Below, one piece after another: positions 618 through 49,120 of a stretch of DNA of 52,546 nucleotides. Below the pieces are notes generated by a model, which was not told the DNA's origin, did not search any database, and saw only the letters and a list, made by a program, of their open reading frames with translations. The translations under genes were made by a program, and so were the position numbers. The DNA is from an uncultured Thermococci archaeon (GTDB taxonomy: Archaea; CAYQAE01; CAYVLA01): contig CAZJVP010000002.1 in the NCBI GenBank assembly GCA_964549615.1, positions 1 through 52,546 on the forward strand. The letters run 5' to 3'. Within the stretch, counting starts at the first letter, position 1, and the number at the start of each line of letters is the position of its first letter.

Positions 618-763
618 GGCCGCGCCGCTCTTCCCATTTTTGGCGGGCTTCCAGTTAAGGTTTTCCAAACAGTTTCAAGTCCCCACGGGCATGCTACTGA
701 CAGTCAAGCAACACCACGTAGCCCCCGGCCATCGTATCCGTCCATCTCTGTCTATCCAGCTCC

Positions 764-2479: not shown

Positions 2480-2820
2480 TACGGCGCAGGGCGGACCCAG
2501 TTTTTCTTAAGTGTTGTCCGTTCCACATGCCAATCCGAGGAGTGATGGGGTCTGAAGCTCCAAGAGACATTCCCTCGCAGTCCCGGAAAGCTTGTCCATC
2601 ACCGTCGACCGATCCGAAAACCCAGGAATAACGCCGTCTCCGGCCTCGGCCACCCTCGGGAGATTCACCCGGCCAAACGCAGGACCGGAGCGGTGATGTT
2701 GAAGACGTCGAACCGAAACATTTCCGCGCCGGTGACGTACACCGACCGAGCAGCCCGGCCCTCGCCTCGGCGCGGCATTTTTCACCGCCATGCACAATTT
2801 CTTCGCCGTAGAGGATCATC

Positions 2821-4047: not shown

Positions 4048-4149
4048 ATCATCCCCCGCGCTGCTGCCCACTAGGCGGTCCCAAAGCCGCAGGTGGCGCG
4101 GAACCCGTCCGAGTCATCGATCGACGGCGGACACACCGACTGGATGCGC

Positions 4150-4476
4150 GATTGTCCGGGATCTGGCTCCACGGGTGCCGAGTCCGACTTATCGTGCACG
4201 AACCGCTTGTCGACGACCGACGCATCCCGGACGATCACCCTTCACGGCCCATTCATGTCCGCATCTCCTCCTCGCTCCTCCAGTCAGGCGATGATCGCCT
4301 GAGGTCATCGGTCAACCTTTGGGCCTGTCCCACAGACCGGGAGGAGACCCAGCTTCCAAGCATCTCATCCTCCCGCTTCCGTCGGCCACCGCCCTCCCAC
4401 GAACGGGCTCCAGTTCAGGAGGGGAGCCGCCTCATCCCCTCCGTCTCTGGATCAACCTCGCACCCACGACTTCCAT
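4150..4476 (-). pseudogene. Degraded vapBC (RHH antitoxin + PIN toxin) remnant
   Basis: Minus-strand fragments VDPETEGMRRLPLLNWSPFV, DWRSEEEMR and VIVRDASVVDKRFV match, in order, the intact pair at 22225-22889 (VDEKLKRRMDLLADINWSEFI, AWSGAEEIR, IVVDASVVVKWF) but are broken by frameshifts and stops. Left boundary approximate. Confidence 0.6.
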
Positions 4477-4525
4477 GAGACCGTTGGCTCTTCTTGCGCG
4501 TACGAGTACACTACCGCCGGCGCCC

Positions 4526-5011
4526 TCACACATCAAAGCAGTCGATCAGCGTCTTGAGATGGATCATGATCAGGCCCTTCATCTGGTCCCTGATGAGCGT
4601 ACCCTCCTCAGAATCTTCCATCAGCGCCTCCAGGACGTAGCGCAGTATCTCGGGCTGTCCGTAGCTCCTGACCAAGTTGCCCACCGTCTCCAAAAGCTCG
4701 CGGAATCCTCTGCCCCGGCAGCGCTCGACGAATTCGAGGTTCTCCCCCAGGGCCCGCTCCAGCATCTCGTCCGTGACTCGGGGCAGGGGCTTTGAGCCCT
4801 GGCGCATCATCTCGAAAACGACGATCCCCAGATACACCAACAGCTCCCGCTCGTCCTGGTTCAGGACGTCCTCGTCAACCCCCAACAGATAGGCGAGCAC
4901 ATAGGGCTGATCAGCACTGATGCGCCGGCTCACCTGGACGATCTCGCCATGGGTCAGGGAAGCCATCTTCTTCCATGTCCGCTCCACGACGTCCCGTGCT
5001 ATCGCCTTCAT
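4526..5011 (-). CDS. Hypothetical alpha-helical protein
   Basis: 161-aa ORF with protein-like composition; internal QPYVLAY / QPEILRY pseudo-repeat. Confidence 0.65.
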   Translation of the reverse strand: MKAIARDVVERTWKKMASLTHGEIVQVSRRISADQPYVLAYLLGVDEDVLNQDERELLVYLGIVVFEMMRQGSKPLPRVTDEMLERALGENLEFVERCRGRGFRELLETVGNLVRSYGQPEILRYVLEALMEDSEEGTLIRDQMKGLIMIHLKTLIDCFDV

Positions 5012-5191
5012 TGCCGGAGACTATGGATCGTCGGCTGAATAAGATTACGCCTTCGCGCTTCACGGCTTCCGTCCCCCGATCTCATCCCCATGGCCTCGAA
5101 GACCCCGATGCCAGTCGCTGCAGGCTGGGCGGCATGCAGGATCAGCCAATCCATGTAACACTTTTCGGACTCGAATGCCGGGCGGTTTGGG

Positions 5192-5771
5192 ATGAAGTTT
5201 GAGTCCGATGAACAGAGGAAGGCCGTAATGGCCAAGCTTAGCCCCACTAGGAAGTCAAAGATCCTCAGGTTACGCGCCACCCCCTCGCAACAAGACCAAG
5301 AGAATCCCCATCCAGAACCCGCAGGTCTGGCTTGCCCAGGCTGCAGCGCTTCTGAGGGACGCCGAGGACTCCGACAACAGGAGGCACAGTCCGGAGGGCA
5401 TATTCAGGCTGGCGTACCCTTCGGCCGAGATCGCCATCAAGGCGGCACGCGGCGAACACGAGACTGGTTGGAAGGGCCACCTACTGGCCCGTACCTTGGC
5501 CCAGCTTGCGAAGGGGCAGTCCTGCGAGGAATACGCCAAACTGCCCGGGATAGCCGGCAGGACGGAGCAGATAGCGGCCCAGATAACGCCCGAGCTGATC
5601 GGCCTCGCCAGGGTAGTCGAAGCATTCTGGCCGCGATACATGGATGCCGGCCACGGCCCCATCGACGAGGCAGCCAAGGACATGACCCTGCGTTTGGCCA
5701 GAGAACTGCACCGTATCCTGCAACCAGTTGGAGCTGAAACCAGGGCCAGAAGCTTCGAGGGAGGACGGTGA
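5192..5771 (+). CDS. HEPN-domain protein, apparently frameshifted near 5280 or lacking a canonical start
   Basis: The frame of ORF 5496..5771 is open from 5229 and encodes VWLAQAAALLRDAEDS..LAYPSAEIAIKAA..WKGHLLART..FWPRYMD (HEPN pattern). The upstream ATG at 5192 is in another frame. An MNT gene follows directly. Confidence 0.6.
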
Positions 5772-5790
5772 CGGTGGACGGTGATGGCTG

Positions 5791-6195
5791 ATGGCTGAAT
5801 CGGCTACGGCAAGGACACGAGGCGCGTGGCCCCGCCGAGCCGCCAAAGCCAGAAAGGTTTCGGCGGCACTCAAACGGTTTTCGGCGCGGGTTCGGTCAGA
5901 GTACGACGTGAAGCTCCTCATACTCTTCGGATCGTTCGCGGATGGAACCTTCCACATGGATAGCGACGTGGACATCCTCGTCGTCACCTCCGGGATGCCC
6001 GAAAGCTGGGGGGAGAGGAGGGTTGCGCTCGAACAAGATGATTTCCCGGCCCGCCTCCAGACATTTCCCTACACCCCCGAGGAATTCCTCCAGATGTGCA
6101 GAGGGGGCAGCGGCCTAGCCTTCAGCGCCCTCACGGAGGGAAGGGTCCTCTACATCGACGACGAGTACCGAAAGAAGCTCCTCGAAGCTCTCTGA
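5791..6195 (+). CDS. Minimal nucleotidyltransferase (MNT), HEPN-MNT antitoxin-like
   Basis: LFGSFADG..DSDVDILVV (GS + DxD motif); 134 aa; adjacent to HEPN. Confidence 0.85.
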   Translation: MAESATARTRGAWPRRAAKARKVSAALKRFSARVRSEYDVKLLILFGSFADGTFHMDSDVDILVVTSGMPESWGERRVALEQDDFPARLQTFPYTPEEFLQMCRGGSGLAFSALTEGRVLYIDDEYRKKLLEAL

Positions 6196-6383
6196 GCTGC
6201 ACCGATGCGCAGCCCACGTCCACTGCCGGCGGAGAACGGTGGCAGCAAATCGTGCTCACCACCACTTCGCTGCCCCGAGCATAACTGCAACCCCACCCGC
6301 TACTGGTGCTTCGCCATGGCGAATGGCATTGCCGAGATGCAGGCGACCGACAGGATACTGGCACGTTCGCGTGCGCGAGCTGC

Positions 6384-7793
6384 TCAGTAGCGCGTCGCGT
6401 TGTACATCTCCTTCGTCGTCCTTCGCTTCCTGACGACCCTGTTTGTGGCGGGATTGGGGTTGGGCCGATCGTTGGCAATGACGCGAAGCTCCATGCCCGG
6501 TCCTATGTCGGTCAGGACGACGGCCTCCGAGCGTCTGTCGCCCACCAGGTCGAAGACGTAGACCAGATGGCCAGGGATCCTGTCCACCACCCTTCCCCAT
6601 CCGTCGAGCACGACGACCTCTTCAGGATCGTTGACGAAGACCTCGTCCAGCCCGTCGCCGTTCCAGTCGCCAAGCCAGAATCCGAATCCGCCCTCCTGCA
6701 TATCGGGCTGGACGACTTCGAAGCTCCAGAGCAGATTGCCGTCAGCGTCAAGGGCAAGCACCCTGTCCTTGGCGCGCGGGTCTACCCTGCTTGCGCCTTC
6801 GTAGGCCACGACCTGACGGCCGGCCAAATCATCCCTGATCTTCCCCACCCTCAGTGCCTGTCCGTGCCTGAGGCCATCGATGCCCCAGAGAAGATCGCCG
6901 TGGCGCGAGAAACAATACGCGCCCGTGCTCATCAGGATCCTTGGCTCCCCGTCAAGGCTGGCAATGCGGACGCTGTCCGCGTGTCCGTCCCTGAGAAGCG
7001 CCTCTAGGTCGGAGGCAACCCAGGAAAGCGTCCCGTCGTGGTCGATGAGGCAAGAGCCGGCCATCACCTCCTTACGTCCGTCCCCGTCGATATCGGCCAC
7101 GTCGGGCGTATGTCCCATCGTCGTGTGCCTTCGGCCACGGGCATGGGAAAGATCGAGCTTCCAGAGCGTCTCCAGATCCGCGTCCAGGAGGGTCACCGAA
7201 CGGTAGTCCCAGCCGACCAGGACCTCTCGCCTCTTGGCCCGTCCCAAGGCATTTACGACTGAGACGGACGATCTGAAATGTCCGCCCTGCGCATCCTTTG
7301 GCATCGCATCCCGATCGGGGTAGGGAACGTTCTTCTTCGTCTCCCCCGTGAGCGCGTCGATCAGGCAGAGGTGAAGCCGGCCGTCGATCCTGCGGGGCCC
7401 CACCAGCTCCATGCGTCCGTCGCCGTCGAGGTCGTAGATCGGAAAGTTGCTGTCCATCCTTATGTCCATGCAGGTAGACCCGGGATCCTCGTACCTCCAA
7501 AGAACCGAGCCATCGTGCAGATACGCGACCTGGAGATGGGAGCCGCAGGTCAGGATCATGCCGATCCTGCCATCCCCGGTGATGTCAGCGAATCGCCAGT
7601 CGTAGAAGAACTCCATCCACGGGATCCAGCCGTGCCTATCGTAGTCCCACGTTACAGCCCCGTTCATCTCAGGCTCATTCAAGAGCCTCGAGTTAGGGGG
7701 CCGCGATAGCGATGCAAGCCATCTTGCAAAGCGCGGAAGCATGGTGACCCTGGATATGAATGGAATTGGATAGGTCAAAGCGACGCGGGCCAT
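6384..7793 (-). CDS. FG-GAP/VCBS-repeat beta-propeller protein (rhamnogalacturonan lyase PL11-like fold)
   Basis: Repeated DxDGDG motifs (DITGDG, DLDGDG, DIDGDG, DWNGDG), GHADS, HGQA. Start uncertain (7793, 7742 or 7667). Confidence 0.65.
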   Translation of the reverse strand: MARVALTYPIPFISRVTMLPRFARWLASLSRPPNSRLLNEPEMNGAVTWDYDRHGWIPWMEFFYDWRFADITGDGRIGMILTCGSHLQVAYLHDGSVLWRYEDPGSTCMDIRMDSNFPIYDLDGDGRMELVGPRRIDGRLHLCLIDALTGETKKNVPYPDRDAMPKDAQGGHFRSSVSVVNALGRAKRREVLVGWDYRSVTLLDADLETLWKLDLSHARGRRHTTMGHTPDVADIDGDGRKEVMAGSCLIDHDGTLSWVASDLEALLRDGHADSVRIASLDGEPRILMSTGAYCFSRHGDLLWGIDGLRHGQALRVGKIRDDLAGRQVVAYEGASRVDPRAKDRVLALDADGNLLWSFEVVQPDMQEGGFGFWLGDWNGDGLDEVFVNDPEEVVVLDGWGRVVDRIPGHLVYVFDLVGDRRSEAVVLTDIGPGMELRVIANDRPNPNPATNRVVRKRRTTKEMYNATRY

Positions 7794-8020
7794 CTGGAGA
7801 GTCCCGTTCCCTGGTTGGCCGTCTTTCTTATCTTTTAGGAGACAGCGTCTCAAACACTTAAGCATTGCCGCGGAGGAGAGGGACGCCGTTTCCCGCGCTG
7901 CAACGAGCCCAGCAGACCGACTCAGACAAGACAAGGCCCTCGAAGAAGGCGTCCCTTCAAATCGTAGGGCCGGCTCTCAGCTGGGAGAGGCGGACGTGAC
8001 GCAAACCGACCAGTGGCGGC

Positions 8021-8953
8021 TCAAAGCGATCTGTGGGCAAGCGCATGAATCCTATCGGCCAGATCCCGGATCAGTTCCCCCCTTGCCAATCGTGGATCGC
8101 CATTCGCGTGGAATCGCTTGCTCGCCGTAGAAGGCTCCTGCCAACTGCCCGCAGACCGCTCCCGTTGTGTCGGCGTCGTCACCCAAGTCCACTGCCAACA
8201 ACACACCTTCGCGGAACGAACCTCCCCTGTGGAAGGCCCAAAGCGCAGCCTCAAGGGATTCGACGACATAGCAGGTCCCCCGGATGTCCGGCGGATCCTT
8301 ATGTTTGAATGAGCCTGCGGCGACACGGGCAACCCCCGTGGCAAGCGGTGCCTCCCGCCATATCCCTTCTCCCGGCTCATAGTGGTCGGAGAGGAGGTCT
8401 TCCTTCGAAGCCCCCAACAACGCCCCAACTAGAAGCGCGGAGAGGTATCGACAGGCATCCACGGCCTCGGCTGCACCGTGCGTGGTTCGCGAACTCTCTG
8501 CCGCCATCCGGATCGCCAGCCGAGGATCCTGCGCGAAGAACAGCGGCACCGGCGCCAGCCGCATGATGGATCCGTTGCCCGCGCTCCAGGGATCGATGGA
8601 GCCACAGTACGGTTCCCCCGTCCTCTCGAATCGGTCTAGGGCTTCTCTGGTCGTGTTGCCGATGTCGAAGCATTCCGAGGTGCTGCTCATGTAGCCCTCC
8701 CTGTACCACCGAAGGTACCTCTCCATCTGGTCGTGCGGATCAAAGCCGCGGCATTCAACGAGGCTCTCGGCCAGGCAGAGAGCCATCGACGTGTCGTCAG
8801 TCCATTGCCCGGGCAGCAGGCCGAAGGGGCCGCCGCCCACCATGTGCTCGAGAGGGGCGAATGATCCAGGCGACCTGAATTCGAGCGTCTTTCCCAGCGC
8901 ATCCCCAACGCCAGCCCCAAAAGACAGCCACGGTAGCGGTCAAGGGTTTCCAA
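8021..8953 (-). pseudogene. ADP-ribosylglycohydrolase (DraG/ARH family), split over three frames
   Basis: [11 protein letters not shown] (8953 frame); [37 protein letters not shown] (main frame); [14 protein letters not shown] (8021 frame). Two apparent single-base frameshifts near 8908 and 8090. Confidence 0.8.
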
Positions 8954-9026
8954 GCCCGATCACCCACCTTGTCGGGATCGCATCACTCGACGTCACTCCG
9001 GAATTGCAGCGCGTTTGCCGAATAGG

Positions 9027-9269
9027 TCAGACATCATCCTGCATGTCCATGAAGTCGTCGAGCTCGTCGAGATCCTCCACCCTTGGTCTGCAAGGCTTCC
9101 TTGCACTGTCCGTCACCCCTTCACCGCCTGAGGGCATGGGCTTGAGCGCAACGAGCACCAAAAAGCCGAGAATCGCAAGCCCGGCCAGAGCCCAGGGCCA
9201 GCCGCCTCCCCCGATCACCATCATCAGACAGAAAAGCTCCAACAGCACGATCAAAAGCAGGACCATCAT
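9027..9269 (-). CDS. Small membrane protein (2 TM, acidic tail)
   Basis: 80 aa; two hydrophobic segments then EDLDELDDFMDMQDD. Confidence 0.55.
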   Translation of the reverse strand: MMVLLLIVLLELFCLMMVIGGGGWPWALAGLAILGFLVLVALKPMPSGGEGVTDSARKPCRPRVEDLDELDDFMDMQDDV

Positions 9270-9383
9270 CCATCCCCTGAGAACCTCGGTCGTACATCCG
9301 GCCAGACGAAGATCCGACCCTGCACATCTGCCGCAGTTCGATCCGCGACCGCCATTTCCCGCGACGGGAGAAAGTCGTCCGGC

Positions 9384-11069
9384 TCACCGAACGTAACGGC
9401 CATCTCGCGTCCTGACCTCCAGCTCGGTCTCCGGCGTGGTGTCGATCTCGCCCCGAATGTTGTACAGGGAGCGCTGCATGGTGGTCTTCACGACGATGGG
9501 GCCGGCGTTGAGCCTTATGGAGTCCGCGTTCTCCGGGACCACGCCTCTGACGACATTGACGCCGATCCTTGAAAAGAGTCCCTCGTTCCAGCAGACAAGC
9601 ATCACTCCCCTCGGGGTCAGGTGGGACGAGCAGATCTTCATAGGGTCACGCAGGTACTTGGGCGTCCCCGGGTCCTCCAGGAACGTCTGGTCCCTGCCGG
9701 AGTCCTTCGTCAGGTAAGGCATCGGGCTTGCCGTGTGATCCTTCCTTCTCAGCTCGTGGGGGATGACTGATACGATCCCCTCCTCCAGCTTCCGGCCCAG
9801 GATTCCGGCCGACCGGTACAGGGGCTCCACCATCCCCGGCTCAAACCAGCCGGAGCGGATGAGGAAGCCGTAGACTGCGAGCGCCTCTTCATACAGCCAG
9901 TGGCGGTAGAACAGGTCGCCCAGATCCTTCAGCGTGCGCTTCCCGTCAACCGCCGCCGGGACCTTGCCCAGGCAGCCCAGAGCTTTCTCATCGTCGCCGC
10001 CTGCGATCCTTGCAGCGGCCAGGGTGCACCAGACCAAGGCCTGGCCCTTGACATCGCCTTGCTCGAGCAGGGGGAGGAGGCTCTGCAGGATCCTGATCGC
10101 GTGCGCGGGATCTCTCCTAAGTAGGTGGGCTATCGCCCTTCGCGCCCCGACCTGCACCAAGAATGGCTTCCGTCTCTCGGAGGAGAGGCCAAGGTAGGTG
10201 GCCGCCTCGTCCAGATATCGCGCCGCCAGGTCGACGGAGCCGGCCTCCTGCGCCTCGACCCCCTTCTCGACCATGGCCCTGCCCAGCTCGCCGAAGATGA
10301 CCGACATCTTCTCGAGGGAGTCGCACTCGGTCGAACTCAGCCTGACACGCATCTCCTCGACCTTGGACAGCGGATCCTCGGATGAAGCGATCCCCTTGAC
10401 AAGGTCAAGCAGCGGCCGGACGTCCGATATCGCCTTCTTCTCGCCCCTCGTGAGGATCCCGCCTGCAAGGTAGTTTTGGACAAGGCCACCCGCCCCCGAC
10501 CTTACCACGGGCGGCGTCCTCTGCGCGGCTATCTGTCGCCTGATTTCTTGCTGCTGGGCCATGAAGGCCTCGGGGTTGGCGTTCTCCAGGAAGTGGCTGA
10601 GCAGCCTGTCGGTCACGATCTTGAGGAAGTGGGACGGGGATCTCCGGTGGAGCATCCCGGCGAACTGGTACGGGGTCATGATCTCCCCGACCGCAACCAT
10701 CCTTGCGTACTCCTGCCTGAGCAGGTAGTCGCTTGACACAAGCAGCGGCCTTTCCCCCGAGAGCGACAGTCCCGCCGCGATCAGGGCGTAGTCGGCCAAC
10801 GACTCACCCTGCGTCAGGCGGCAGGAGGTTTGCCCCATCACCTGCCTTGCCGCATCATCGCTGATGGGCAACGACCGGCAGCGCGAAAGCAGGACGCTTT
10901 TCATCTCCTTGCGGTGGATCTCGTCAAGCACCTGCCCCACGATCACCGGTTCAAACCCGGCCTTCCTTGCCTGATCCAGTATCTCGATCGCCGCGCTGAC
11001 GGCCTCGCTTAAGCTGAACTTGTGGTCCAGCGCGATGAAGACGTTGGAGTCAAACAGGGTCGGCGTCAT
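9384..11069 (-). CDS. PIN-domain nuclease fused to TPR-like helical region and a C-terminal beta-rich domain
   Basis: N-terminal LFDSNVFI..VLDEI..SLADYALI..LVSSD gives a full acidic PIN tetrad; central helical repeats (A..YL..A, KALGCL, YEEALAVY). ATG 11069 lies 8 nt after the SMC stop; the ORF track extends to 11102. Confidence 0.8.
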   Translation of the reverse strand: MTPTLFDSNVFIALDHKFSLSEAVSAAIEILDQARKAGFEPVIVGQVLDEIHRKEMKSVLLSRCRSLPISDDAARQVMGQTSCRLTQGESLADYALIAAGLSLSGERPLLVSSDYLLRQEYARMVAVGEIMTPYQFAGMLHRRSPSHFLKIVTDRLLSHFLENANPEAFMAQQQEIRRQIAAQRTPPVVRSGAGGLVQNYLAGGILTRGEKKAISDVRPLLDLVKGIASSEDPLSKVEEMRVRLSSTECDSLEKMSVIFGELGRAMVEKGVEAQEAGSVDLAARYLDEAATYLGLSSERRKPFLVQVGARRAIAHLLRRDPAHAIRILQSLLPLLEQGDVKGQALVWCTLAAARIAGGDDEKALGCLGKVPAAVDGKRTLKDLGDLFYRHWLYEEALAVYGFLIRSGWFEPGMVEPLYRSAGILGRKLEEGIVSVIPHELRRKDHTASPMPYLTKDSGRDQTFLEDPGTPKYLRDPMKICSSHLTPRGVMLVCWNEGLFSRIGVNVVRGVVPENADSIRLNAGPIVVKTTMQRSLYNIRGEIDTTPETELEVRTRDGRYVR

Positions 11070-11077
11070 TTCCGTGC

Positions 11078-12952
11078 CTACAGGGCGATCACGTTTGCCC
11101 ATCCGCCCTCGACGAGGGCCGGCTCGTTGCTGGTCACTATGATCTGGTCAGGGGCTGGGACCTCCCTGAGGAACTCCCTCATCTTGGCCACGTGCTCGGC
11201 GTCAAGGTGCTCGGTCGGCTCGTCCAGGACCATGAAGTCCGAGCTCACCATGGACTGTGCCAGCGCGAACCTTATCGCCAAGAAGCAGAGCATCTTCTCG
11301 GACGCCGCCATGGTCGAAGCCTGAATCTCATGTCCCTCCCTCTCGGCCACCGGCAAGAGCATGTTCTTCTCAAGGTCCACGTGCCACCCCTCGAAGATCC
11401 CCAGCTTCAGCACCGAACCCGTCGCAAGCTGCTCGATCTTCTTGATCGGTATTGACCCCAGCTCCACGACGGTGGCCTCGCAGGCCTCCCTGAGTAGCTT
11501 CGAGAGCGCCTTCGATCTCTGAACCTCCGCTTCCTGGTTCTCAAGCTCTTGCAGCCTCTCCTCAGCCGCCTTGAGCGCCGCCTGGTCAGCCACCACCCGG
11601 TCACGGCTGGCCATAACCTCCTCGAGCCTGGACTGTATCTCGGCAAGGCGGGCGTCGGTCTCCTCCACCATCTCGGCGCCCTTCACCCTCTGTCTCAGGT
11701 CTTGGACCTCCTTTTCCAGCCTCTCAATCTCCTTCTGGCGCTCGGCGAGGGCCTGCTGCAGGCTCTCTAGTGCCTCGATCTTTCGCCGGAGCCTGTCCTT
11801 CTTCTCGAGCCCGTCCTGCACCGCCTGCCTTTCCCTCTGGGCCTGCTGCGCGGCCTGCGCCGCCCGGGCAAGCTCCTGCTCCACGGACTCCAGCTCGCGC
11901 TTCTTCTCGGCGATGATCGAGTCCAGTATCTGGGGCGTGATCTTCTGGTGGCAGGTCGGGCACTCCCCGATCCCCTTCGCCTTCAGCGCCTGGACCGACG
12001 CCAGCGCGTCCCTGAGCAACAGGCTCCTCCCCCTCGCCTCGTCCCGCTTTCCCGACAGCTCCCTCTCCGCATCCAGCTTGGCCTTGAGTTCGTCCTGGGT
12101 CGCAGCGATGGATTCCATCTCGGACCTTATGGCTTCCAGGCTCGGGTACGGACCCTTCTCGGTTCCCAGCCTGCCTTCAAGCGACTTCCTCTCCGCGTCC
12201 AGGCGCTCCAGCCGCTCCTCGGCCATGCTGAGCTTCAGGCTGTCGTCGGCCAGGCCCTTGAGCGAGGCCTTCTGCTGGAGCAACCGCTCCTTCTCAGCGT
12301 TGAGCGCCTCCAACTCCCGGTTGAGCCGGTCAAGCTCGCCGATCAGCGGCTTTGCCTTCAGCACGGTCAGGTTCGTGGCGGCCTGGGCGAAGGCCTTTTC
12401 CAGCTCCCTTGCCCGTGCGTTGACCCGGCTCTGCCACTCCTTCGCCGCATCGGCTATCTCCTCAAGCCTCTCCAGCCTGATCAGCGACTTGACGAACTCC
12501 TTCCTCTTCATCGGCGTGCTGCTGGCAAGGTACTCGGGGATCTCCCCCTCCTTCATGAACACGGCCTGGGTAAGCTCAGGAAACCTGGCCTGAAGGAGCT
12601 CGGCTATCTTTAGGTCCACCGATGAGCCGCTCGCCAGCTCTGACACCTCGGAGCCGCCCTCGAGCCTGAGTAGGTGCGACTGCTTGCGGGTCGGCCTCCG
12701 CCTCACCCTGTAGGCCTCGCCGCCTATGGTCAGGTCAAGCTCGACCACGGCGTCCTTGGATGCCGCCCTGACGAAGTCGGCCGGCTTCGCCTTCGGCGCG
12801 AGCACCTCGCCCGTGAGGGCATAGAACATCGCGTTCACCAGGCTGGTCTTCCCGGAGAAGTTCTTGCCGTAGAGGACGTTCCTGCCCGGCTTGAACTCGA
12901 CGGCCTTCTGCTCGAACGGCCCCCAGTCGCGCACAGCCAGTCGGGTGATCAT
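11078..12952 (-). CDS. Rad50/SbcC-like SMC-family ATPase, short (624 aa), with zinc hook
   Basis: Walker A GKNFSGKTS; long coiled coils; central CPTC (res 331-334, nt 11951-11962); Walker B/D-loop MVLDEPTEHLD; atypical Q-loop, signature and H-switch. Confidence 0.9.
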   Translation of the reverse strand: MITRLAVRDWGPFEQKAVEFKPGRNVLYGKNFSGKTSLVNAMFYALTGEVLAPKAKPADFVRAASKDAVVELDLTIGGEAYRVRRRPTRKQSHLLRLEGGSEVSELASGSSVDLKIAELLQARFPELTQAVFMKEGEIPEYLASSTPMKRKEFVKSLIRLERLEEIADAAKEWQSRVNARARELEKAFAQAATNLTVLKAKPLIGELDRLNRELEALNAEKERLLQQKASLKGLADDSLKLSMAEERLERLDAERKSLEGRLGTEKGPYPSLEAIRSEMESIAATQDELKAKLDAERELSGKRDEARGRSLLLRDALASVQALKAKGIGECPTCHQKITPQILDSIIAEKKRELESVEQELARAAQAAQQAQRERQAVQDGLEKKDRLRRKIEALESLQQALAERQKEIERLEKEVQDLRQRVKGAEMVEETDARLAEIQSRLEEVMASRDRVVADQAALKAAEERLQELENQEAEVQRSKALSKLLREACEATVVELGSIPIKKIEQLATGSVLKLGIFEGWHVDLEKNMLLPVAEREGHEIQASTMAASEKMLCFLAIRFALAQSMVSSDFMVLDEPTEHLDAEHVAKMREFLREVPAPDQIIVTSNEPALVEGGWANVIAL

Positions 12953-12955
12953 CCC

Positions 12956-13132
12956 TTACTCCCCCACAAGCTTCGCCAGCTCTACGTCCGGCCTTGCGTC
13001 CTTGTCCTCGAACATCCGCTTGAAATAGGCCTCAAGCTTCTCGATGTCCTCCATGCTGACCAGCTTCTCCTTGGCCGCCAGCCCCCTGAGCTTCTCGGAG
13101 AAGATGCTCAGGGGCGAAACCCTATCCTGCAT
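12956..13132 (-). CDS. Small 58-aa helical protein coupled to the SMC gene
   Basis: MQDRVSPLSIFSEKLRGLAAKEKLVSMEDIEKLEAYFKRMFEDKDARPDVELAKLVGE; purine-rich GGGGGAAGAAGG before the ATG; stop is 3 nt before the SMC ATG. Confidence 0.65.
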   Translation of the reverse strand: MQDRVSPLSIFSEKLRGLAAKEKLVSMEDIEKLEAYFKRMFEDKDARPDVELAKLVGE

Positions 13133-13196
13133 CCTTCTTCCCCCTTCGGTGCCCGTGCCCGCCTGCTCGGCGGGAGTCCCGATGAAGCCAGCCCCG

Positions 13197-13985
13197 TTAC
13201 GCGTTGCACTCCGCGTCAAGGAAGAGCCTGCCCGTCCTTTCAAGCCCAACCTTGACCTTCTTGCCCTCGGACGCCACGCTGACCAGGTCCTTGCGCCTCA
13301 GGGATTCAAGGTGATAGACCACGTTTGACCTTGGGACCCTCTTTCTCCCCGTCCTGACCCGCTGCGCCAGTTCCTTGAGCGACTCCGCACCTCCCTCCGC
13401 CAAGCCCTTGAGGATCGCGCGCTCGGTCTCGCTGAGGGGCTCCACGGGGAGGGGAGACAGCTCCAGGATCTCCTTGACCCCGCTCGCCATCCCCTTCTGC
13501 AGGAACTCGTCCACGACCGCCTTCGCCCCCTCAAGTGACTCCTGGGACGGCTTACCTGCCGCCTCAAGCAGCGCCTCCACCATCCTTCCCTGCCTGTACT
13601 CCTCCGGCTTGACGTACAGCAGCCTCACCTGTCCCAGCGGCCTGCACATGGAGGCGGCCATCACGATGGCCACAAGTTCCAGCCTTGGCGCTGCCGAAAG
13701 GTTCACCAGGACCTTCTTCCCCAATGAGAGCTCGCTCTTGAGCAACGCGGATATCTGCCTGAACATGGCGTCGAAGTCGTAGATGTCCACCTCCACCGAG
13801 CGAATCCTGACCGGGAGCTGCCTGAGCTTCTCCAGGAAGTGGTCCTCAAGCGAGTGCTCCCCCGGGTACTCCTCGTTCTTGCTGCGCAAAAGCACCAGCT
13901 CATCCACGGGGTGCTCCAGCATCGGCGCGACTATCCTGTCGTACTCGAACCCGACCGGCACAATGTGGACGCAGGGCTGCCTCAT
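13197..13985 (-). CDS. CARF-like Rossmann domain + winged-HTH transcriptional regulator (DUF6293/HFX_2341-like, Csa3-like architecture)
   Basis: N-terminal VHIVPVGFEYDRI, VLVNLSAAPR, LLYVKPEEY; C-terminal LSETERAIL..SLKELA..RSNVVYHLESLRRKDLV wHTH. Confidence 0.8.
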   Translation of the reverse strand: MRQPCVHIVPVGFEYDRIVAPMLEHPVDELVLLRSKNEEYPGEHSLEDHFLEKLRQLPVRIRSVEVDIYDFDAMFRQISALLKSELSLGKKVLVNLSAAPRLELVAIVMAASMCRPLGQVRLLYVKPEEYRQGRMVEALLEAAGKPSQESLEGAKAVVDEFLQKGMASGVKEILELSPLPVEPLSETERAILKGLAEGGAESLKELAQRVRTGRKRVPRSNVVYHLESLRRKDLVSVASEGKKVKVGLERTGRLFLDAECNA

Positions 13986-13987
13986 CT

Positions 13988-14018
13988 GCGTTCCTTGGGG
14001 AACGCCTGTTCTTAAATA
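13988..14018 (-). promoter_or_regulatory. Archaeal TATA box plus palindromic operator for the CARF-SMC-PIN operon
   Basis: Minus-strand TATTTAAG at 14011-14018, about 26 nt before ATG 13985. Perfect inverted repeat GCGTTCC-ttgg-GGAACGC at 13988-14005. Confidence 0.65.
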
Positions 14019-14288
14019 TGTTTGCCAGAAGACACAAATAGTTGTTACGAAACCGCCTGAATGGTCGCAAAATCATGGACAGGGGATTGTTCCATGTGCC
14101 GAATCCTCGTCGCCCTCCTGGGCGGCCTGGCCGTGCCCGTGGTCGGTCCAGCGCGAGCAGGCGCCAAGACAGCGGAGGCAGGAGGCATGCCGTCCAGCTA
14201 CTTGGTGAACTCTACGCGAGGGCTGAGGCTTGGGCGCCCCAGGGAGATTTATCTGATCCCGCCTCCCATCTCGGGCTGAGGAGACTCC

Positions 14289-14708
14289 GTGGCAGCGCCC
14301 GAACTGAACCTCGCGAAGGCTGCCAAAAGGCTTGCAGCCGGGCTCTCTAGGGTTCCAGGGATAATCTGCGTCTACCTCTTCGGATCCGCGGCCAGGGGGG
14401 ACAGCAACGCGCTCAGCGACATCGACCTAGCCGTACTCCTTGAGCCTAGCCACGGAGGCGAGATGTCCAAGGCCGCCGAGGTGTTGGCAAGAGTCTTCGG
14501 GGAGAAGGCCGACATCTCGGATCTAGCTGAACTTCCGTTGTCCGTTCAGTTCAGGGCGATAAGGGATGGGGTGCTTCTCTACGTCGCCGATGACCTCGCG
14601 AGAGCCAGGTTCGAGGCCCGCGTCATCGAGGAGTACCTGGACATGGAGTTCCACAGGGAGGAATACCTAGGAGAGTGGTTTGGGGATGCCAGGCCGAGTG
14701 GATCGTGA
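14289..14708 (+). CDS. MntA-like minimal nucleotidyltransferase antitoxin
   Basis: YLFGSAARGDSNALSDIDLAV; C-terminal EEYLDME; overlaps the downstream DUF86 gene. Confidence 0.9.
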   Translation: MAAPELNLAKAAKRLAAGLSRVPGIICVYLFGSAARGDSNALSDIDLAVLLEPSHGGEMSKAAEVLARVFGEKADISDLAELPLSVQFRAIRDGVLLYVADDLARARFEARVIEEYLDMEFHREEYLGEWFGDARPSGS

Positions 14709-15422
14709 ACTCGTCGCGGCCAAGTTCATGCTGATCAAAGACAACGTCAAGCAACTCAGGAAGCTTGCGGCACTTCCGAAGGAAGCGTTTCTTGCGGATC
14801 CGATCCGGAGGGCTGCCGCGGAGAGGATGTTGCACATATCCATCGAGGCTGCGGTCGACATATGTAGCCATGTAATATCCGTCGAGAAGCTAAGGAAACC
14901 GGAGCACTATGCCGATATCCCCTCGATCCTGAAGGAGGCGCACGTCCTTGGTGAAGATGTCGCGACCAGCCTGGTCGACATGATCAAGTTCAGGAACATC
15001 CTCGTGCACCTGTACGCTGTTGGGTAAAGTGACATATGTTACACTTTTCCGCCTTCCCGCTCCGGCGGCCTTCCACCGAGCGATCAACTTTCGTATGCCC
15101 ATCGATGCGCAGGACTTCGAACAAGACATTCGGGAGGCGGGTTGAGTCCTTTCTCTCCTCCGGGGAGGAAGAAACCTCAAGAAGTCAGTCCACCCATTCG
15201 AGACACTCGGTCGCGGGCAGGAGCGCCATGACTCCCCATGACTCCTCGGACTGAGGCATGGAGAGTCCTCTGCAGAGTGTAACATATGTGGGTTTACCCA
15301 ACATCGTGCACCTGTACGCGAAGCTTGATGTAGAGAGGCCTCACGACATCCTCCGGAACAATCTGGACGACTTCGACAGGTTCGAAGACGACATCGTGCG
15401 GTACGTGAAGCGCACAGGGTAG
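14686..15422 (+). pseudogene. HepT-like (DUF86) HEPN RNase toxin interrupted by an insertion
   Basis: AAERMLHISIEAAVDI..KFRNILVHLY (Rx4H-x-Y). Removing 15018-15319 restores the frame: ..RNILVHLYAKLDVERPHDILRNNLDDFDRFEDDIVRYVKRTG*, stop at 15420-15422. Confidence 0.9.
15018..15303. mobile_element. 286-bp non-autonomous insertion element (MITE) with 28-bp TIRs and 16-bp target-site duplication
   Basis: Left TIR TGTTGGGTAAAGTGACATATGTTACACT (15018-15045); right TIR 15276-15303 reverse-complements to TGTTGGGTAAACCCACATATGTTACACT (25/28). Flanked by identical TCGTGCACCTGTACGC at 15002-15017 and 15304-15319. Confidence 0.93.
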
Positions 15423-15941
15423 CTGGAGCGGTGGGGCCGCGAAGGTGATAAGGCCGAATGCGGTCTACGCGTTTGATCCGGGTGGCCGCCCAATCCCTGA
15501 GACTTCCCTGTTGGGTTCCCTGGCGACGATCATATGCGCATGCTCGCTGAGGGATTTGAGCTGCGTTGGTAAGACTCCCTGAGCGACGGCGGCCAGATAC
15601 CCTTCTACTCCAGGCCCCAAGTCCCGGCAAGCCAACGGCCCGCGATGCCCGTCTGGGCGCCTTGGACATCACCCGCTCCCTTCAGCACGCCGCGTCAGCC
15701 CTTCCAGGATCTCCTCAGTACGGCGGCAAAGCCGGATCTGGAGCCACCCCGCGCCAGCTGGAACGAGCAAGTGATCGACAGATCGACCATCGGGCCGGGA
15801 TTCGCGGGTCGGCCATTTCGCCGGAAGCAATAGGATCAACGAGCGGCGCAAAGAAACAACCGGCAGAAAACATCCCCGGGCCACAAGCGGAACAGAAAGG
15901 CGAAGCGCGGGCCAAGCCAAAGCCACGAAGCAGGGGATGCC

Positions 15942-16283
15942 TCAACGAACCTCCTCGAGCTTGTCGATGAACCGGCTATACCATCGCTCGAGCTCTCCGC
16001 TTGAAACGATGTGCAGCTCTATGGGAGCGTCGATTGCCCCCAGGATCCGGGCCTTGGCCCTCGTGGCCTCCTCTCGGTCGACGCCGTCCACGACTATGAG
16101 GATGTCGATGTCGCTGCTGGCCGTGTACCTCTTATCCAGAACGGATCCGAACACATAGAGCCTGCAGTCCTTCCAGATCTGCCGTGCCGCCTCCTTTACT
16201 CTCCTTGCCACGTCCCTATAGGCCTCAAGCTGGCCGAGGGCCCTTTCGCCCGCCTTGATGTAGGGATCAAAGCTGCTCGACAA
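15942..16283 (-). CDS. Minimal nucleotidyltransferase (MNT)
   Basis: YVFGSVLDKRYTASSDIDILIV, PIELH; probable TTG start overlapping the HEPN stop. Confidence 0.85.
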   Translation of the reverse strand: MSSSFDPYIKAGERALGQLEAYRDVARRVKEAARQIWKDCRLYVFGSVLDKRYTASSDIDILIVVDGVDREEATRAKARILGAIDAPIELHIVSSGELERWYSRFIDKLEEVR

Positions 16284-16653
16284 TCGGTCCGAAAACCTCC
16301 TTCGCGAACCTGAGCATGCTCCTGACCTCGAGAGGCTCATGCTGCCTCGGCAAGTACCGGGCGGCGATGTATGCGTCCTCAATCTTGGTCAGCAGCACGA
16401 GGCTGTTTTCATCCTGAAGGAGGGCTCCCAGTTTCTGGGCGCCCGTTCCGAGATGGCGGATCAGTCGGACGAGGGAATGCGTTCTCGGGTAGGTACCCGT
16501 CTTCAATAGGAGCTTGTGCTTAAGGAGAAGTTGACAATACTGCTCGATGCTGAAAGCTGCTAGGTCCCAGACCTCCTCCGCCATCAGTCTTTCCGCGTTC
16601 CTCAGGAAGGCCTGCGCTCTCTCTCTCAGGGCTTCCGCCTCTTCGAAGGACAT
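16267..16653 (-). CDS. HEPN-domain protein
   Basis: AFLRNAERL..DLAAFSIEQYCQLLLK..YPRTHSL..YIAARY; TTTATAAG TATA box about 30 nt upstream (16683-16690, minus strand). Confidence 0.88.
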   Translation of the reverse strand: MSFEEAEALRERAQAFLRNAERLMAEEVWDLAAFSIEQYCQLLLKHKLLLKTGTYPRTHSLVRLIRHLGTGAQKLGALLQDENSLVLLTKIEDAYIAARYLPRQHEPLEVRSMLRFAKEVFGPIVEQL

Positions 16654-17300
16654 TTGACACCGAACCGGATTACGCCTCACTGCTTATAAAGGGCCCCATG
16701 CCCCGGATGTCGCGTCCGAATCCACGATTTTGGAGAGCCTTGCTTCGCAGCGCTGGATCGCTGTGTCCGCACTCGTCCGGGCGTCCTGGATCCAACAACT
16801 CTCCCTCACGACGCTGACGGTGAACGCGCAACTCCAGCCCTCGTTCCAAACCTTGTTTCCGCCCTACAACCCAAACGTCTCCGCCTTCGCCATGGCCGCG
16901 GGCATCATCCCGGTAACGACCAGCATGAACAAGCCCGGGGGACGGGAGCCCTCAGAGACGAAGCCTCGGGCGAGGAGCGGGTCTGCCCCGGCAAACCAGC
17001 GACCTAACCCAGAACGACCTACTGCGAACACAGGTCTGGGTCGCCCCCTTGAGTGTAACACAAGAAGGCAGCCCCAATATCCACCAAAAGGGCTCGGTAA
17101 TGTCGCACTTGAGCGGCATGACGCGGGAGGGGACAGACCGGGAGGCTGCAAGGCTCGAACTGCAGCCTAGCCCCAGTCGAGAAAACCATCCCCTGTAGTC
17201 TCGAAATAGACCGCCCCTTCCTCCGCGTCTCGGACCACATGCAAGGAACGCTGACTCCGCTCCGCCATCCGTTGGTTAGCTCGGATCACGCTCAGACGGG

Positions 17301-18545
17301 CTACGTTCGATCCATGAGCAGCTTTGTAGCTTTAACCTCGCGGTAGAACCTACGACGAACCATCAGCGACCAGAGGAGGAAGCCGCAGAAAAGCGTCGTC
17401 CCCGTCACTGCGAGCCACTCCACGACGTATACCCACAGCAGCGTTGCGTTCTTTAGCTTCATGGCGTCTTGTTCCATCTCGTCAAGCATCGCCTCCACCT
17501 CCCGGTACGCATCGAGCATCTCCTCAAAACGCAGCTGCAGGTACTCGGGCATGGCAGCAGCTATGGCTGCGTCGATCTCTCCCGCGCGCCGCAGGATGCT
17601 TCTCGTATTGGCCCCGAAGGACTCGCAGAAATCTAGAAGGCTGACCAATAGGGATCTCCTCGTTGCGACCTGGAAGATCTTGGTCCTTGCTGCGTGAGCG
17701 AGTGTCACGTCCTGGGGAACGGGCCGCCCATTCAGGTAGATCATCAGGTTGCTTCCGAAGTCGATCGCATACTCCCAGGGCGAGCCGTACCAGGAGAGCG
17801 CGTGGATCTCGCTAGTCAGCGCAAAAACCCTAGCCTCATTGGGGAGTTTCCAGGTGATCATCAGGGGGTCCTCGGATCCGCTGGCGGACACGACGCGCGC
17901 CAGCATCTCGGCTCCGGGCCTCACCTTCACCAAGTTGTGGTGCCACCTGATCTGGCCAAGGTTGGGGTCTTTGAAGTTCCACGGAATGCTCCGGATGAGT
18001 TCGTGGTCAGGCTTGTCGAAGATGACCGGCCAGCCAGACTCGACCCAGACCCCAACCACGTCCTCGGTCGGGAGCAGCCTGCCAACCGCGCTATCGCCCC
18101 AGGGCGGCGCGGCCATGCTAGTACCGCCGAACGTCTCCCAGCCGCCGGACATCAGCAAACCCATGCCACCTTCCTCCACGCCCTGGGCCAGCTTGTCTAT
18201 GTGCGTGCCCACCGCGAAGCGGTTGGCATTGGCAAGGACTATCACGTCGAAGTTGCTGACCAAGTCCCGGTAGGTCCGGGGCATGTAGAGCCTGACCCTC
18301 CTGTGCACCTCCGACTCCGCCATTCCAGCCCAGTCGCGCAGCGTGGCGATCACGAAGCCCATCGAGAAGAGCGGATCCGACCTCATGAAGTTGAAAGGAG
18401 GAGATCGAGCAATGCAGCCTATGTAAAGGACCCCGATCCTTCCGTCTTGGAGTCCAAGAGCTCCCTGACAAAGACATCCCGCAATAACCACGGCTGAAAC
18501 TACTGCCCACTCCCAGGAACCGGCTCCCCGCAACTCCCTGCTCAC
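17301..18545 (-). CDS. Secreted GATase-like protein with C-terminal TM anchor (paralogue 2)
   Basis: GRIGVLYIG, RLYMPRT, FDVIVL, GLLMSGGWETFGG, LLP, FGANT; tail WVYVVEW..LWSLMVRRRFYREV. Confidence 0.7.
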   Translation of the reverse strand: MSRELRGAGSWEWAVVSAVVIAGCLCQGALGLQDGRIGVLYIGCIARSPPFNFMRSDPLFSMGFVIATLRDWAGMAESEVHRRVRLYMPRTYRDLVSNFDVIVLANANRFAVGTHIDKLAQGVEEGGMGLLMSGGWETFGGTSMAAPPWGDSAVGRLLPTEDVVGVWVESGWPVIFDKPDHELIRSIPWNFKDPNLGQIRWHHNLVKVRPGAEMLARVVSASGSEDPLMITWKLPNEARVFALTSEIHALSWYGSPWEYAIDFGSNLMIYLNGRPVPQDVTLAHAARTKIFQVATRRSLLVSLLDFCESFGANTRSILRRAGEIDAAIAAAMPEYLQLRFEEMLDAYREVEAMLDEMEQDAMKLKNATLLWVYVVEWLAVTGTTLFCGFLLWSLMVRRRFYREVKATKLLMDRT

Positions 18546-18968
18546 ATCCTCAGCCGGTGGCCTTCTCCGTGAAAGCGCCTTGCCTTCTAAAGGCTTTTGG
18601 CCCGCAATCCCCGCGAACCCCCAGGACCCCAGCCAGTTTCAGCGCCTCGGCTGCCGTTAGGAGTCAGAACATTTCCATTTGCATCGGCTTGGGTGCGGAA
18701 AAACACGCCATCAGGGGTGGCGCTAAGCTCCCTCTTGGTTCTCTGCGGCTGAGGCCCAGAAGGGACGAACGCTCGTCTGTCAGGCACTTGCTTTGGCTTC
18801 ATGCCTCGTCTTTTCCCCCGCGCGGCATCCAAAAGAAGAGCATGCCCCCCTCAATGGCGGGCTGGCGCTCAGATTGGGTTCAAGAACTCCTGTGTCGTCC
18901 TCAGGCATTGGCCATGAGCCGGGCAGCAGGGAGTCCCTGAAAGCTTTTAGGCAACGCCAACGAACCTG

Positions 18969-39759: not shown

Positions 39760-39878
39760 ATGCCCGGCCGCCCTAAACCGGGTCCAGTCGGAATGCACGT
39801 GGCTAGGTCAGAGTGGTACGAGTTTCCCGTCCGGACTGCGTGGCAAAAGATATCAACCGTCTGCCTGCACGCTCACCC

Positions 39879-49117: not shown

Positions 49118-49120
49118 CCT

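Follow-up and report, generated by a model that had tools for sequence, protein, structure and literature searches.

A rare archaeal cassette of a small protein, a zinc-hook SMC-like ATPase and a PIN-TPR-OB protein: probably an undescribed defence system with a Lamassu-like layout

Introduction

The stretch of DNA analysed here (hereafter the window, 52,546 nucleotides (nt) in full) is contig CAZJVP010000002.1, read on the forward strand, of the GenBank assembly GCA_964549615.1, which comes from an uncultured Thermococci archaeon. Part of it is occupied by a cassette of four co-oriented genes, which encode a transcription regulator with a CARF-like domain and a winged helix-turn-helix (wHTH), a protein of only 58 amino acids (aa), a short ATPase of the SMC/Rad50 type and a multidomain protein with PIN, TPR-like and OB folds, which we regard as a putative effector. 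An earlier note, made from the letters of the sequence, had singled out these four genes as a candidate archaeal defence system with the logic of Lamassu, where an SMC sensor, a tiny partner and a toxic effector act together. The computational analysis reported here indicates that the cassette is probably an undescribed defence system, Lamassu-like in its layout but made up of different protein families.

Four genes behind a probable single promoter

The window belongs to a genome of 3.2 Mb (104 contigs, 99.5% complete), whose rRNA-operon contig matches the archaeal models of the small and large subunit rRNAs, in agreement with the archaeal host that had been supposed. A bacterial origin, to which sugar-hydrolase genes in the neighbourhood pointed, was rejected on this ground. 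All four genes lie on the minus strand (Table 1), and the gaps of 64, 3 and 8 nt already given in the earlier note are confirmed from the list of open reading frames (ORFs) when the starts backed by homologue alignments are used for the second and the fourth gene. The small gene thus begins, in its 58-aa form, at an ATG (position 13132) nested in a 97-aa frame that opens with TTG (12956-13249), whereas the frame of the effector spans 9384-11102 (572 aa) and gives the 561-aa protein from its second ATG at 11069.

The single TATA box that had been described for the cassette could be placed at ATATTTAA, at a distance from the first ATG that is consistent with a single promoter and a leaderless or short-leader transcript. 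Moreover, the 64-nt spacer ahead of the small gene is G+C-rich and, as read from the sequence, holds no TATA-like element. The region upstream of the regulator, with ATATTTAA and CGTAACAACTATTT, is conserved in one of the homologous loci described below (L004) and partly in another (L005), and the second of these elements, with its core CAACTATTT, is a candidate operator for the wHTH regulator or a part of the promoter.

Table 1. Position and supporting evidence of the elements of the cassette in the window
Feature	Position	Strand	Basis
CARF-like (HFX_2341_N / Csa3-type Rossmann) + winged-helix transcription regulator, 262 aa	13197..13985	-	Pfam, PADLOC, NCBIfam, synteny
58-aa two-helix protein, predicted adaptor at the SMC coiled-coil base	12956..13132	-	Position upstream of SMC, complex prediction
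SMC-like (Rad50-type) ABC ATPase, 624 aa	11078..12952	-	Family matches, motif alignment, trees
Putative effector PIN-TPR-OB, 561 aa	9384..11069	-	AlphaFold2 model, structural matches, invariant residues
TATA-like element ATATTTAA	14011..14018	-	Read from sequence, ~30 nt upstream of the regulator ATG at 13985
Conserved upstream element CGTAACAACTATTT	14036..14049	-	Core CAACTATTT invariant in the 3-locus alignment
Cassette extent	9379..14069	.	Sole block of window 1-19900 matching G002 contig C125

A conserved core of three genes in changing surroundings

A word-indexed search of 5.8 billion proteins returned seven relatives of the effector. With HMMER, 1.84 billion representatives were searched exhaustively, which yielded 33 proteins at E <= 0.001, six of them at E <= 1e-30; these matches include five full-length representatives of the family and four distant proteins that share its PIN-helical-OB layout. 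Among 401 archaeal genomes, 15 match the effector profile at E <= 1e-5, full length only in the genome of the window (G000) and in G002, G004 and G034; the effector is present in three of the five genomes of the window's GTDB phylum. The family is therefore rare. A scan of metagenomes with the effector profile gave no match, nor did viral contigs hold any relative of the effector, their only hits being phage SbcC-like proteins about 20% identical to the SMC-like ATPase. The plasmid collection, which was searched with the ATPase and not with the effector, contains no close relative of the former. Among sequencing runs, the whole stretch 9384-14018 is found in only one, labelled hot springs metagenome and possibly the source of this DNA, and two other hot-spring runs contain 10-12% of its sampled words.

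All four genes occur in order in two other loci, L004 (contig C125 of G002) and L005 (contig C37 of G004), each counted once. The identities to the regulator, the small protein, the ATPase and the effector of the window are 79, 75, 81 and 72% in the former and 57, 36, 51 and 41% in the latter. A further genome of the same phylum (G003; 91% complete, 500 contigs) carries, at the end of a contig, the small gene together with the N-terminal 84 residues of the ATPase (68% identity). In G034, which belongs to another family and has a G+C content of 37%, the genes for a small protein (76 aa), an SMC-like ATPase (615 aa, ~25% identical) and a PIN-helical-OB protein (536 aa) are joined by 4-nt overlaps. 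The conserved synteny that had been put forward as a check of the idea is therefore found, with all four genes in L004 and L005 and with three in G034; since the order is kept in three further genomes, the arrangement is not due to chance. The conserved core is formed by the small protein, the SMC-like ATPase and the PIN-TPR-OB protein. There was no sign of exchangeable effectors as in Lamassu: every full locus has the same PIN-TPR-OB protein.

The surroundings of this core are not conserved. Positions 2753-7469 of contig C125 match the window from 9379 to 14069 at 79% nucleotide identity, that is, over the promoter and the four genes, and nothing else of window 1-19900 matches this 9.4-kb contig, although both genomes are of the same genus. 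The setting of the cassette thus differs between genomes of one genus. Toxin-antitoxin or defence-type genes neighbour it in all four loci with readable flanks. The HEPN-MNT pairs noticed at the outset in the window are borne out (MNT/HepT and MNT/HEPN, at 14289-15027 and 15942-16680), together with PDC-S09; L004 is flanked by PDC-S70, RHH/UPF0175 and AbiEi, L005 by Cas3g (5.9e-157) and an SbcCD-like pair, and the G034 locus by a PDC-S70 pair and a VapC-type PIN gene.

A zinc-hook ATPase that is not the housekeeping Rad50

Pfam finds SMC_N and AAA_23 in the ATPase. Eight sequences of the family, down to 24% identity, keep the Walker A, the Walker B (DE) and the SxSEK signature motifs, and the residues of the CPTCxQ zinc hook (C331, P332, T333, C334 and Q336) are invariant among them. 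In all members an Asn stands where Rad50 and SbcC have the His of the H-loop. This ATPase is not the housekeeping Rad50, for which contig C101 of the same genome encodes a canonical pair of genes, an Mre11 (444 aa) overlapping a Rad50 (890 aa), while an SMC with its ScpA is found on contig C51. The objection that it might be the only Rad50 of the genome, foreseen in the earlier note, thus falls, whereas the reported absence of Mre11 stands: there is no Metallophos/Mre11 gene in the operon, nor among the core genes of L004, L005 and L051. Compared with the 890-aa Rad50, the protein of the window has 624 residues and a much shorter coiled coil, and its best score against the NCBIfam Rad50 equivalogs is 126.2 bits, through its N-terminal part only, against a cut-off of 700.

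A profile search with the ATPase in the 401 archaeal genomes matched 125 of them at E <= 1e-25, with the four members of the family at E <= 1e-221 and the next best protein at 5e-57. Among nine of these next-best loci, an Mre11 homologue lies directly upstream in four and one gene away in another one, and none was seen within 1.5 kb in the other four; neither the small protein nor the effector occurs in any of the nine. Two maximum-likelihood trees (IQ-TREE in 'quick' mode, LG+C20, 38 and 34 rows) gave the phylogeny that had been asked for at the start. In both of them the family falls outside all the Rad50/SbcC rows that are paired with Mre11 or SbcD, and it groups, together with the G034 protein and a Poribacteria-type clade (P0012, P0013 and L006), with LmuB of Lamassu and with PbeC. 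Values of the Shimodaira-Hasegawa-like approximate likelihood ratio test for this grouping are 88 and 97 in one tree and 81-92 in the other. Since branches are long and the sampling of LmuB is thin, the placement beside LmuB and PbeC is suggestive only.

Archaea also have archaea-specific SMC-related proteins (ASRPs), and a role of the ATPase in chromosome organisation or cell biology, as for the coalescin ClsN or Sph, with the PIN-TPR-OB protein as an accessory, had to be considered. The NCBIfam ASRP model NF045487 matches the window protein over its full length (120.8 bits, 6.5e-35), and ASRPs (ClsN, Sph1-4) are likewise archaeal SMC-like proteins of about 600 aa with a zinc hook (PMC9389158). 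However, this score lies below the cut-off of 300, and the canonical SMC of the genome scores higher with the same model (135 bits), so the match is not specific and membership of the ASRP family was rejected. Moreover, two annotated ASRPs adjacent to rdfA branch far away from the family in both trees, no conserved neighbours are reported for ASRPs in that paper (PMC9389158) in contrast to the fixed small-protein and PIN partners seen here, and the catalytically intact PIN residues and the patchy distribution are unlike those of a housekeeping function. We consider this reading very improbable.

Some other SMC-like genes came up along the way. On two haloarchaeal plasmids (L036:3971-6704 and L037:3965-6884) a gene annotated as 'archaea-specific SMC-related protein' adjoins one annotated as RdfA. 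The genome of the window has a second short Rad50-like protein of 694 aa on contig C15 (L032:6598-8682, minus strand), with no adjacent Mre11, next to which are encoded a BNR-repeat protein and a protein of 391 aa that neither Pfam nor PADLOC recognises. On contig C32 (L033:4416-7373, plus strand), a gene for a 985-aa SMC-like protein precedes two genes that overlap each other (254 and 179 aa) and match no Pfam or NCBIfam family, a locus that may encode an SMC5/6-like archaeal complex.

A small protein predicted at the base of the coiled coil

The 58-aa protein has no match in Pfam, PADLOC or NCBIfam, and its family amounts to eight clusters in the collection of 5.8 billion proteins. Its gene keeps its place directly upstream of the SMC gene in L004, L005, L072, L051 and L007. 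In L006 and L007, which are metagenome contigs with SMCs 26-29% identical to that of the window, the small ORF ends at or overlaps the start of the SMC gene.

The binding of this tiny partner to the ATPase, proposed in the earlier note, is supported by structure prediction. Modelled together, the two proteins reach an interaction prediction score from aligned errors (ipSAE) of 0.62, versus 0.00 for the best control, from alignments of six sequences for the ATPase and three for the small protein; the ipSAE mark used is reached by 58 of 80 solved complexes and by 2 of 110 mismatched pairs. Between runs, at least 91% of the contacts are shared, and the predicted local distance difference test (pLDDT) of the partner is at least 76. 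In the predicted complex both helices of the small protein lie on residues 162-176 and 478-498 of the ATPase, which are the two strands of the coiled coil at their exit from the head; the small protein would thus, by this prediction, clamp the coiled coil at its base. This is where the C-terminal domain of Mre11 or SbcD binds Rad50 or SbcC. The likeness to Mre11 is positional only, because there is no detectable sequence relation: an alignment of its profile with that of Mre11 has an hhalign probability of 0.1%, and a search of the PDB sequences gave nothing below E 0.18. Homology to Mre11 is thus not supported.

A PIN-TPR-OB protein as putative effector

The effector matches no family of Pfam, PADLOC or NCBIfam. 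It stays below the threshold of every Pfam PIN model, although distant members of the family give sub-threshold matches to PIN_12 and PIN_5. The Pfam family PIN-TPR-GreABC (PF20698) does not match at E <= 0.1 and was seen only as a look-alike of rank 30 in the ESM Atlas (score 0.81). Its AlphaFold2 model (pLDDT 85.1) shows a PIN domain (~1-148), a helical linker, a TPR-like region (~216-413) and an OB fold (~470-556). Fold assignments were made with VIA-align. The PIN domain matches 2mdt (Z 11.9, root-mean-square deviation 3.3, 115 residues aligned), 1y82 (Z 11.2) and the protein-only RNase P 7f3e_E (Z 10.9), and the TPR region reaches Z values up to 13.2, a level that is common for repeats. 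The C-terminal domain, modelled alone (pLDDT 74.5), matches OB folds only, with Z values from 5 to 7.1: HIN (Z 7.1), RPA and Teb1, as well as telomere-end-binding protein, single-stranded DNA-binding protein and the anticodon-binding domains of aminoacyl-tRNA synthetases. Foldseek gave no match against the PDB at E <= 0.001, either for the whole model or for the C-terminal domain. The PIN and TPR folds that had been read from the sequence are therefore confirmed, whereas the OB fold at the C-terminus had been overlooked.

Across 11 sequences, with identities as low as 18%, four acidic residues of the PIN domain (D7, E50, D93 and D114) do not vary. This agrees with the catalytic PIN anticipated in the earlier note and argues for an active nuclease, and the OB fold together with the RNase-like PIN matches suggests that its substrate may be single-stranded RNA or DNA.

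The features of the ATPase, the small protein and the effector could also be those of a repair complex for DNA ends or DNA structures that works independently of Mre11, in which the PIN-OB nuclease would replace the Mre11 phosphoesterase and the small protein its Rad50-binding domain, and which would act on flaps, hairpins or stalled forks of the cell's own DNA. As in Mre11-Rad50 and SbcCD, the ATPase has a zinc hook and canonical Walker motifs, with the DE of Walker B intact, and heads closest to those of solved archaeal Rad50; the predicted site of the small protein is the coiled-coil base; and the OB fold resembles those of binders of single- or double-stranded DNA (RPA, HIN, telomere-end-binding proteins). 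PIN-like folds, moreover, include flap endonucleases. However, the genome already has an Mre11-Rad50 pair, while the core of the cassette has no Metallophos gene. The cassette is patchy (4 of the 401 genomes) and has unshared flanks, with toxin-antitoxin or defence neighbours in four of four loci. A Csa3-type regulator is present, Asn takes the place of the H-loop His throughout the family, and the best PIN matches are VapC-like proteins and protein-only RNase P instead of FEN-type nucleases. We therefore consider a repair complex unlikely.

A PIN domain with four conserved acidic residues, whose closest folds are VapC-like proteins, also recalls the VapBC toxin-antitoxin systems. The cassette could then be a selfish addiction module in which a PIN toxin is kept in check by the ATPase and the small protein, or by the latter alone, and which persists on mobile DNA through post-segregational killing. 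The invariant tetrad, a small upstream protein in the core, neighbourhoods rich in toxin-antitoxin genes and the discrete block shared between genomes are all in line with this reading. Against it, the small gene precedes the SMC gene and not the PIN gene, its product is predicted to bind the ATPase and has no recognisable DNA-binding antitoxin domain, and the PIN domain forms the N-terminal part of a multidomain protein of 561 aa. Moreover, a 620-aa ATPase with a conserved hook would be a costly antitoxin, and, as said above, no member of the effector family was found on viral contigs and no close relative of the ATPase in the plasmid collection, searched with the ATPase only. An addiction module is improbable in our opinion.

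A CARF-wHTH regulator outside the core

The assignment of the first gene as a CARF-wHTH regulator holds up. Its product matches HFX_2341_N (Pfam PF19810, 6.4e-28, 98 bits for a cut-off of 30) and HTH_20 (32.5 bits for a cut-off of 27), and PADLOC recognises it along its full length as CARF3 (PDLC01876, 1.3e-45). With an N-terminal Rossmann-like CARF domain and a C-terminal wHTH it resembles the Csa3 and HFX_2341 regulators, but it is not an equivalog of HFX_2341 (NF051475, only 64.9 bits versus a cut-off of 500), and it heads an SMC-PIN operon instead of being stand-alone or cas-adjacent. A gene for a CARF-wHTH protein is found upstream in three of the four loci whose upstream region can be read, and no CARF gene lies directly upstream in G003; the contig of G034 stops 172 nt upstream of the core, short of any position of a regulator, which for this reason cannot be assessed there. 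The regulator is hence a lineage-specific addition outside the conserved core, and not the fixed part of the system that it was first taken for.

The regulator also brings up a link to CRISPR, namely that the cassette might be an accessory module switched on through a Csa3-type CARF protein. It belongs to the Csa3/HFX_2341 group, HFX_2341 is described as a repressor of cas genes in the abstract of PMC11434293, and in L005 the operon adjoins the Cas3g gene. However, only one of the four loci has such a cas neighbour, the Cas1 gene of the window's genome is on a separate contig (C80), neither Cmr2 nor Csm1 was found in that genome, and in G003 no regulator directly precedes the core. We deem a CRISPR accessory hardly probable at all. 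Next to the cassette of G004, and divergent from it, L005:1-4691 (minus strand) encodes a protein of 297 aa with a weak Metallophos match, an AAA_23/AriA-like ATPase of 650 aa and the Cas3g helicase. These genes may represent a further defence module of the SbcCD type, adjacent to a type I CRISPR locus.

A proposed SMC-based conflict system in the manner of Lamassu

Among the systems compared, Lamassu (LmuA-LmuC-LmuB; also DdmABC or ABC-3C), and above all its 'long' type, offers the closest parallels in layout. Its complex is described as sensing DNA ends and releasing an effector (PMC12663957, as for all statements on Lamassu in this paragraph). Its ATPase is a short SMC-like protein of about 600-800 aa, with one CxxC hook in the long LmuB; the gene of a small protein, LmuC, stands directly before that of LmuB, as the small gene stands directly upstream of the SMC gene here; and its effector joins an N-terminal enzyme to a C-terminal domain, a layout that is analogous only. 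In addition, the long LmuC resembles the SbcC-binding C-terminal domain of SbcD and is predicted at the coiled-coil base of the long LmuB. On the other hand, the C-terminal part of the window effector is made of TPR and OB, a CARF-wHTH regulator is attached, and the effector domains that the paper lists for Lamassu (Cap4, Mrr, protease, Sir2, FMO, HNH, SMEK and lipase) include no PIN. Lamassu is reported there in only seven archaeal genomes.

Because a sensor, a small upstream subunit and a two-part effector match the logic of Lamassu, we favour an SMC-based conflict system, acting in defence or abortive infection, that works like Lamassu with a PIN nuclease as effector, and we hold this to be about evenly poised between right and wrong. 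In such a system, the ATPase would dimerise through its CxxC hook, with the small protein sitting at the base of the coiled coil and the effector held inactive through its TPR-OB part, possibly by contact with the ATPase. The trigger would be an encounter of the ATPase with DNA ends or aberrant replication intermediates of an invader, upon which an ATP-dependent change would free or activate the PIN nuclease. The latter could then cut single-stranded RNA or DNA, and growth would stop. The CARF-wHTH protein would control transcription from the single promoter, perhaps in response to a ligand.

RloC, a single bacterial polypeptide, fuses a zinc-hook Rad50-like ATPase to an anticodon nuclease. 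Compared by this description, it resembles the cassette in that, in a setting of conflict, an effector of the RNase type is coupled to a zinc-hook sensor related to Rad50; its nuclease domain is a different one, however, whereas here a PIN-TPR-OB protein of its own carries the nuclease, and a small subunit is added.

Several results weigh against the Lamassu-like interpretation. Although the PADLOC LmuB model PDLC03859 matches the ATPase along its full length (3.3e-38, 130 bits), it also matches proteins paired with SbcD (73-97 bits) and, better than the window protein, the second Rad50-like protein of the genome on contig C15 (147 bits). The match is thus non-specific and was rejected as a proof of Lamassu; with another model, PDLC03863, true LmuBs (L022 and L027) score 324-366 bits and the window ATPase 62. 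The likening of the ATPase to LmuB in the earlier note finds no backing among solved structures either, where a sequence search has archaeal Rad50 heads as the nearest ones (5.4e-40) and no LmuB among the best 60 of 111 matching chains. Support in the trees, which were built by a 'quick' method, is moderate; branches are long, and LmuB and PbeC are represented by only two rows and by one or two rows, respectively. At E <= 0.1 the effector and the small protein are missed by the PADLOC LmuA and LmuC models (as is the small protein of G034 at E <= 1e-6), while the LmuC model does detect a control LmuC (L027:6603-7085) at 1.5e-20, and the gene order is small-SMC-effector here as opposed to LmuA-LmuC-LmuB. 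The complex prediction may lean on solved Rad50-Mre11 structures, and to this is added the failure of the small-protein profile to align with Mre11. No alternative effector was found with this SMC family; as neither Cmr2 nor Csm1 (Cas10) was found in the genome, the CARF domain has no obvious source of cyclic oligoadenylate; and, among the sequencing runs searched, no RNA run contains the locus.

The distribution of effector-like folds also speaks against this interpretation. In other archaea, single genes set among metabolic ones encode PIN-helical-OB proteins of about 600 aa that are weakly related to the effector (L052:7620-9440, L053:8101-9912 and L054:7653-9467), and the look-alikes of the effector in the ESM Atlas are common archaeal hypothetical proteins, in clusters of 58-347 members from Thermoplasmatota and Methanobacteriota. 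In L053 and L054 the stand-alone gene is followed by an ORF of 138-141 aa with no Pfam match.

We do not place the cassette in Lamassu itself because the LmuA and LmuC tests failed, the gene order differs, the class of the effector is unlisted and the host is archaeal. That no named system corresponds to the gene set, as the earlier note had it, agrees with the result that PADLOC recognises neither the effector nor the small protein, with PADLOC-DB 2.0 (2023) as the only library of defence systems scanned. Full-text literature searches found no description of this gene set, although the ABC ATPase classification of Krishnan et al. 2020, which they did not cover, may already describe the clade; the titles and abstracts of the papers listed on CARF, Rad50, PIN and archaeal defence contain none either, and the papers listed on ABC-3C deal with Lamassu or other systems. 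Taken as a whole, the proposal of the earlier note is partly supported, through the gene set, its synteny and the separate Mre11-Rad50, whereas no support was found for a fixed CARF protein, for an exchange of effectors or for closeness to LmuB by sequence among solved structures.

A more detailed version of the Lamassu-like reading can be offered, tentatively and with considerable doubt. The adaptor, the zinc-hook SMC and the PIN-TPR-OB protein would be a distinct immune system of archaea, and possibly also of some bacteria, given the Poribacteria-type SMC clade with its upstream small ORF. This system would descend from Mre11-Rad50, as a parallel to the origin of Lamassu. The pair of helices that binds Rad50 would have split off as a free subunit, and the phosphoesterase would have been replaced by a PIN nuclease that attacks RNA or single-stranded DNA when invader DNA is sensed, with transcription gated by the CARF protein. 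SMC-based immunity, in the form of Wadjet and Lamassu, is known almost entirely from bacteria. If the proposal is true, it would mean that the Mre11-Rad50 repair machine gave rise to an immune sensor along a second route, by way of a free two-helix adaptor, and it would supply a new class of effector (PIN) for this immune logic as well as a compact three-protein model of how an SMC head and the base of its coiled coil control a nuclease. The invariant hook, the DE of Walker B, the Asn of the H-loop and the PIN tetrad are ready-made targets for mutants. Should the cassette encode a repair complex instead, a Rad50-type nuclease machine independent of Mre11 would also be of interest.

Other features of the window

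Neither a tRNA gene nor a long flanking repeat marks an integration site around the cassette. A composite transposon around the locus was considered and rejected, as the regions near 3900-4030 and 17335-17470 of the window, which match the same multi-copy sequences in relatives, belong to two paralogous genes and not to insertion sequences. Two GATase1-like, membrane-anchored paralogues, 31% identical to each other, are found at 2821-4047 (plus strand) and 17301-18545 (minus strand), and their genes match dozens of places in three related genomes, so that they belong to a large multi-copy family. After the first MNT-HEPN pair there is a 43-nt inverted repeat (15003-15045 and 15276-15318), whose arms are 81% complementary and 230 nt apart. 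Directly downstream of the cassette, and outside the block shared with G002, a gene for an ADP-ribosylglycohydrolase (1e-76) occupies positions 8052-8843 of the minus strand. Farther away, genes for an MttB-family methyltransferase, a URO-D-like protein and a B12-binding corrinoid protein (34991-36463, 39813-40898 and 48488-50038) lie beside many glycoside hydrolase genes (fucosidase, GH2, GH123 and BNR), which is an unusual mix for an archaeon.

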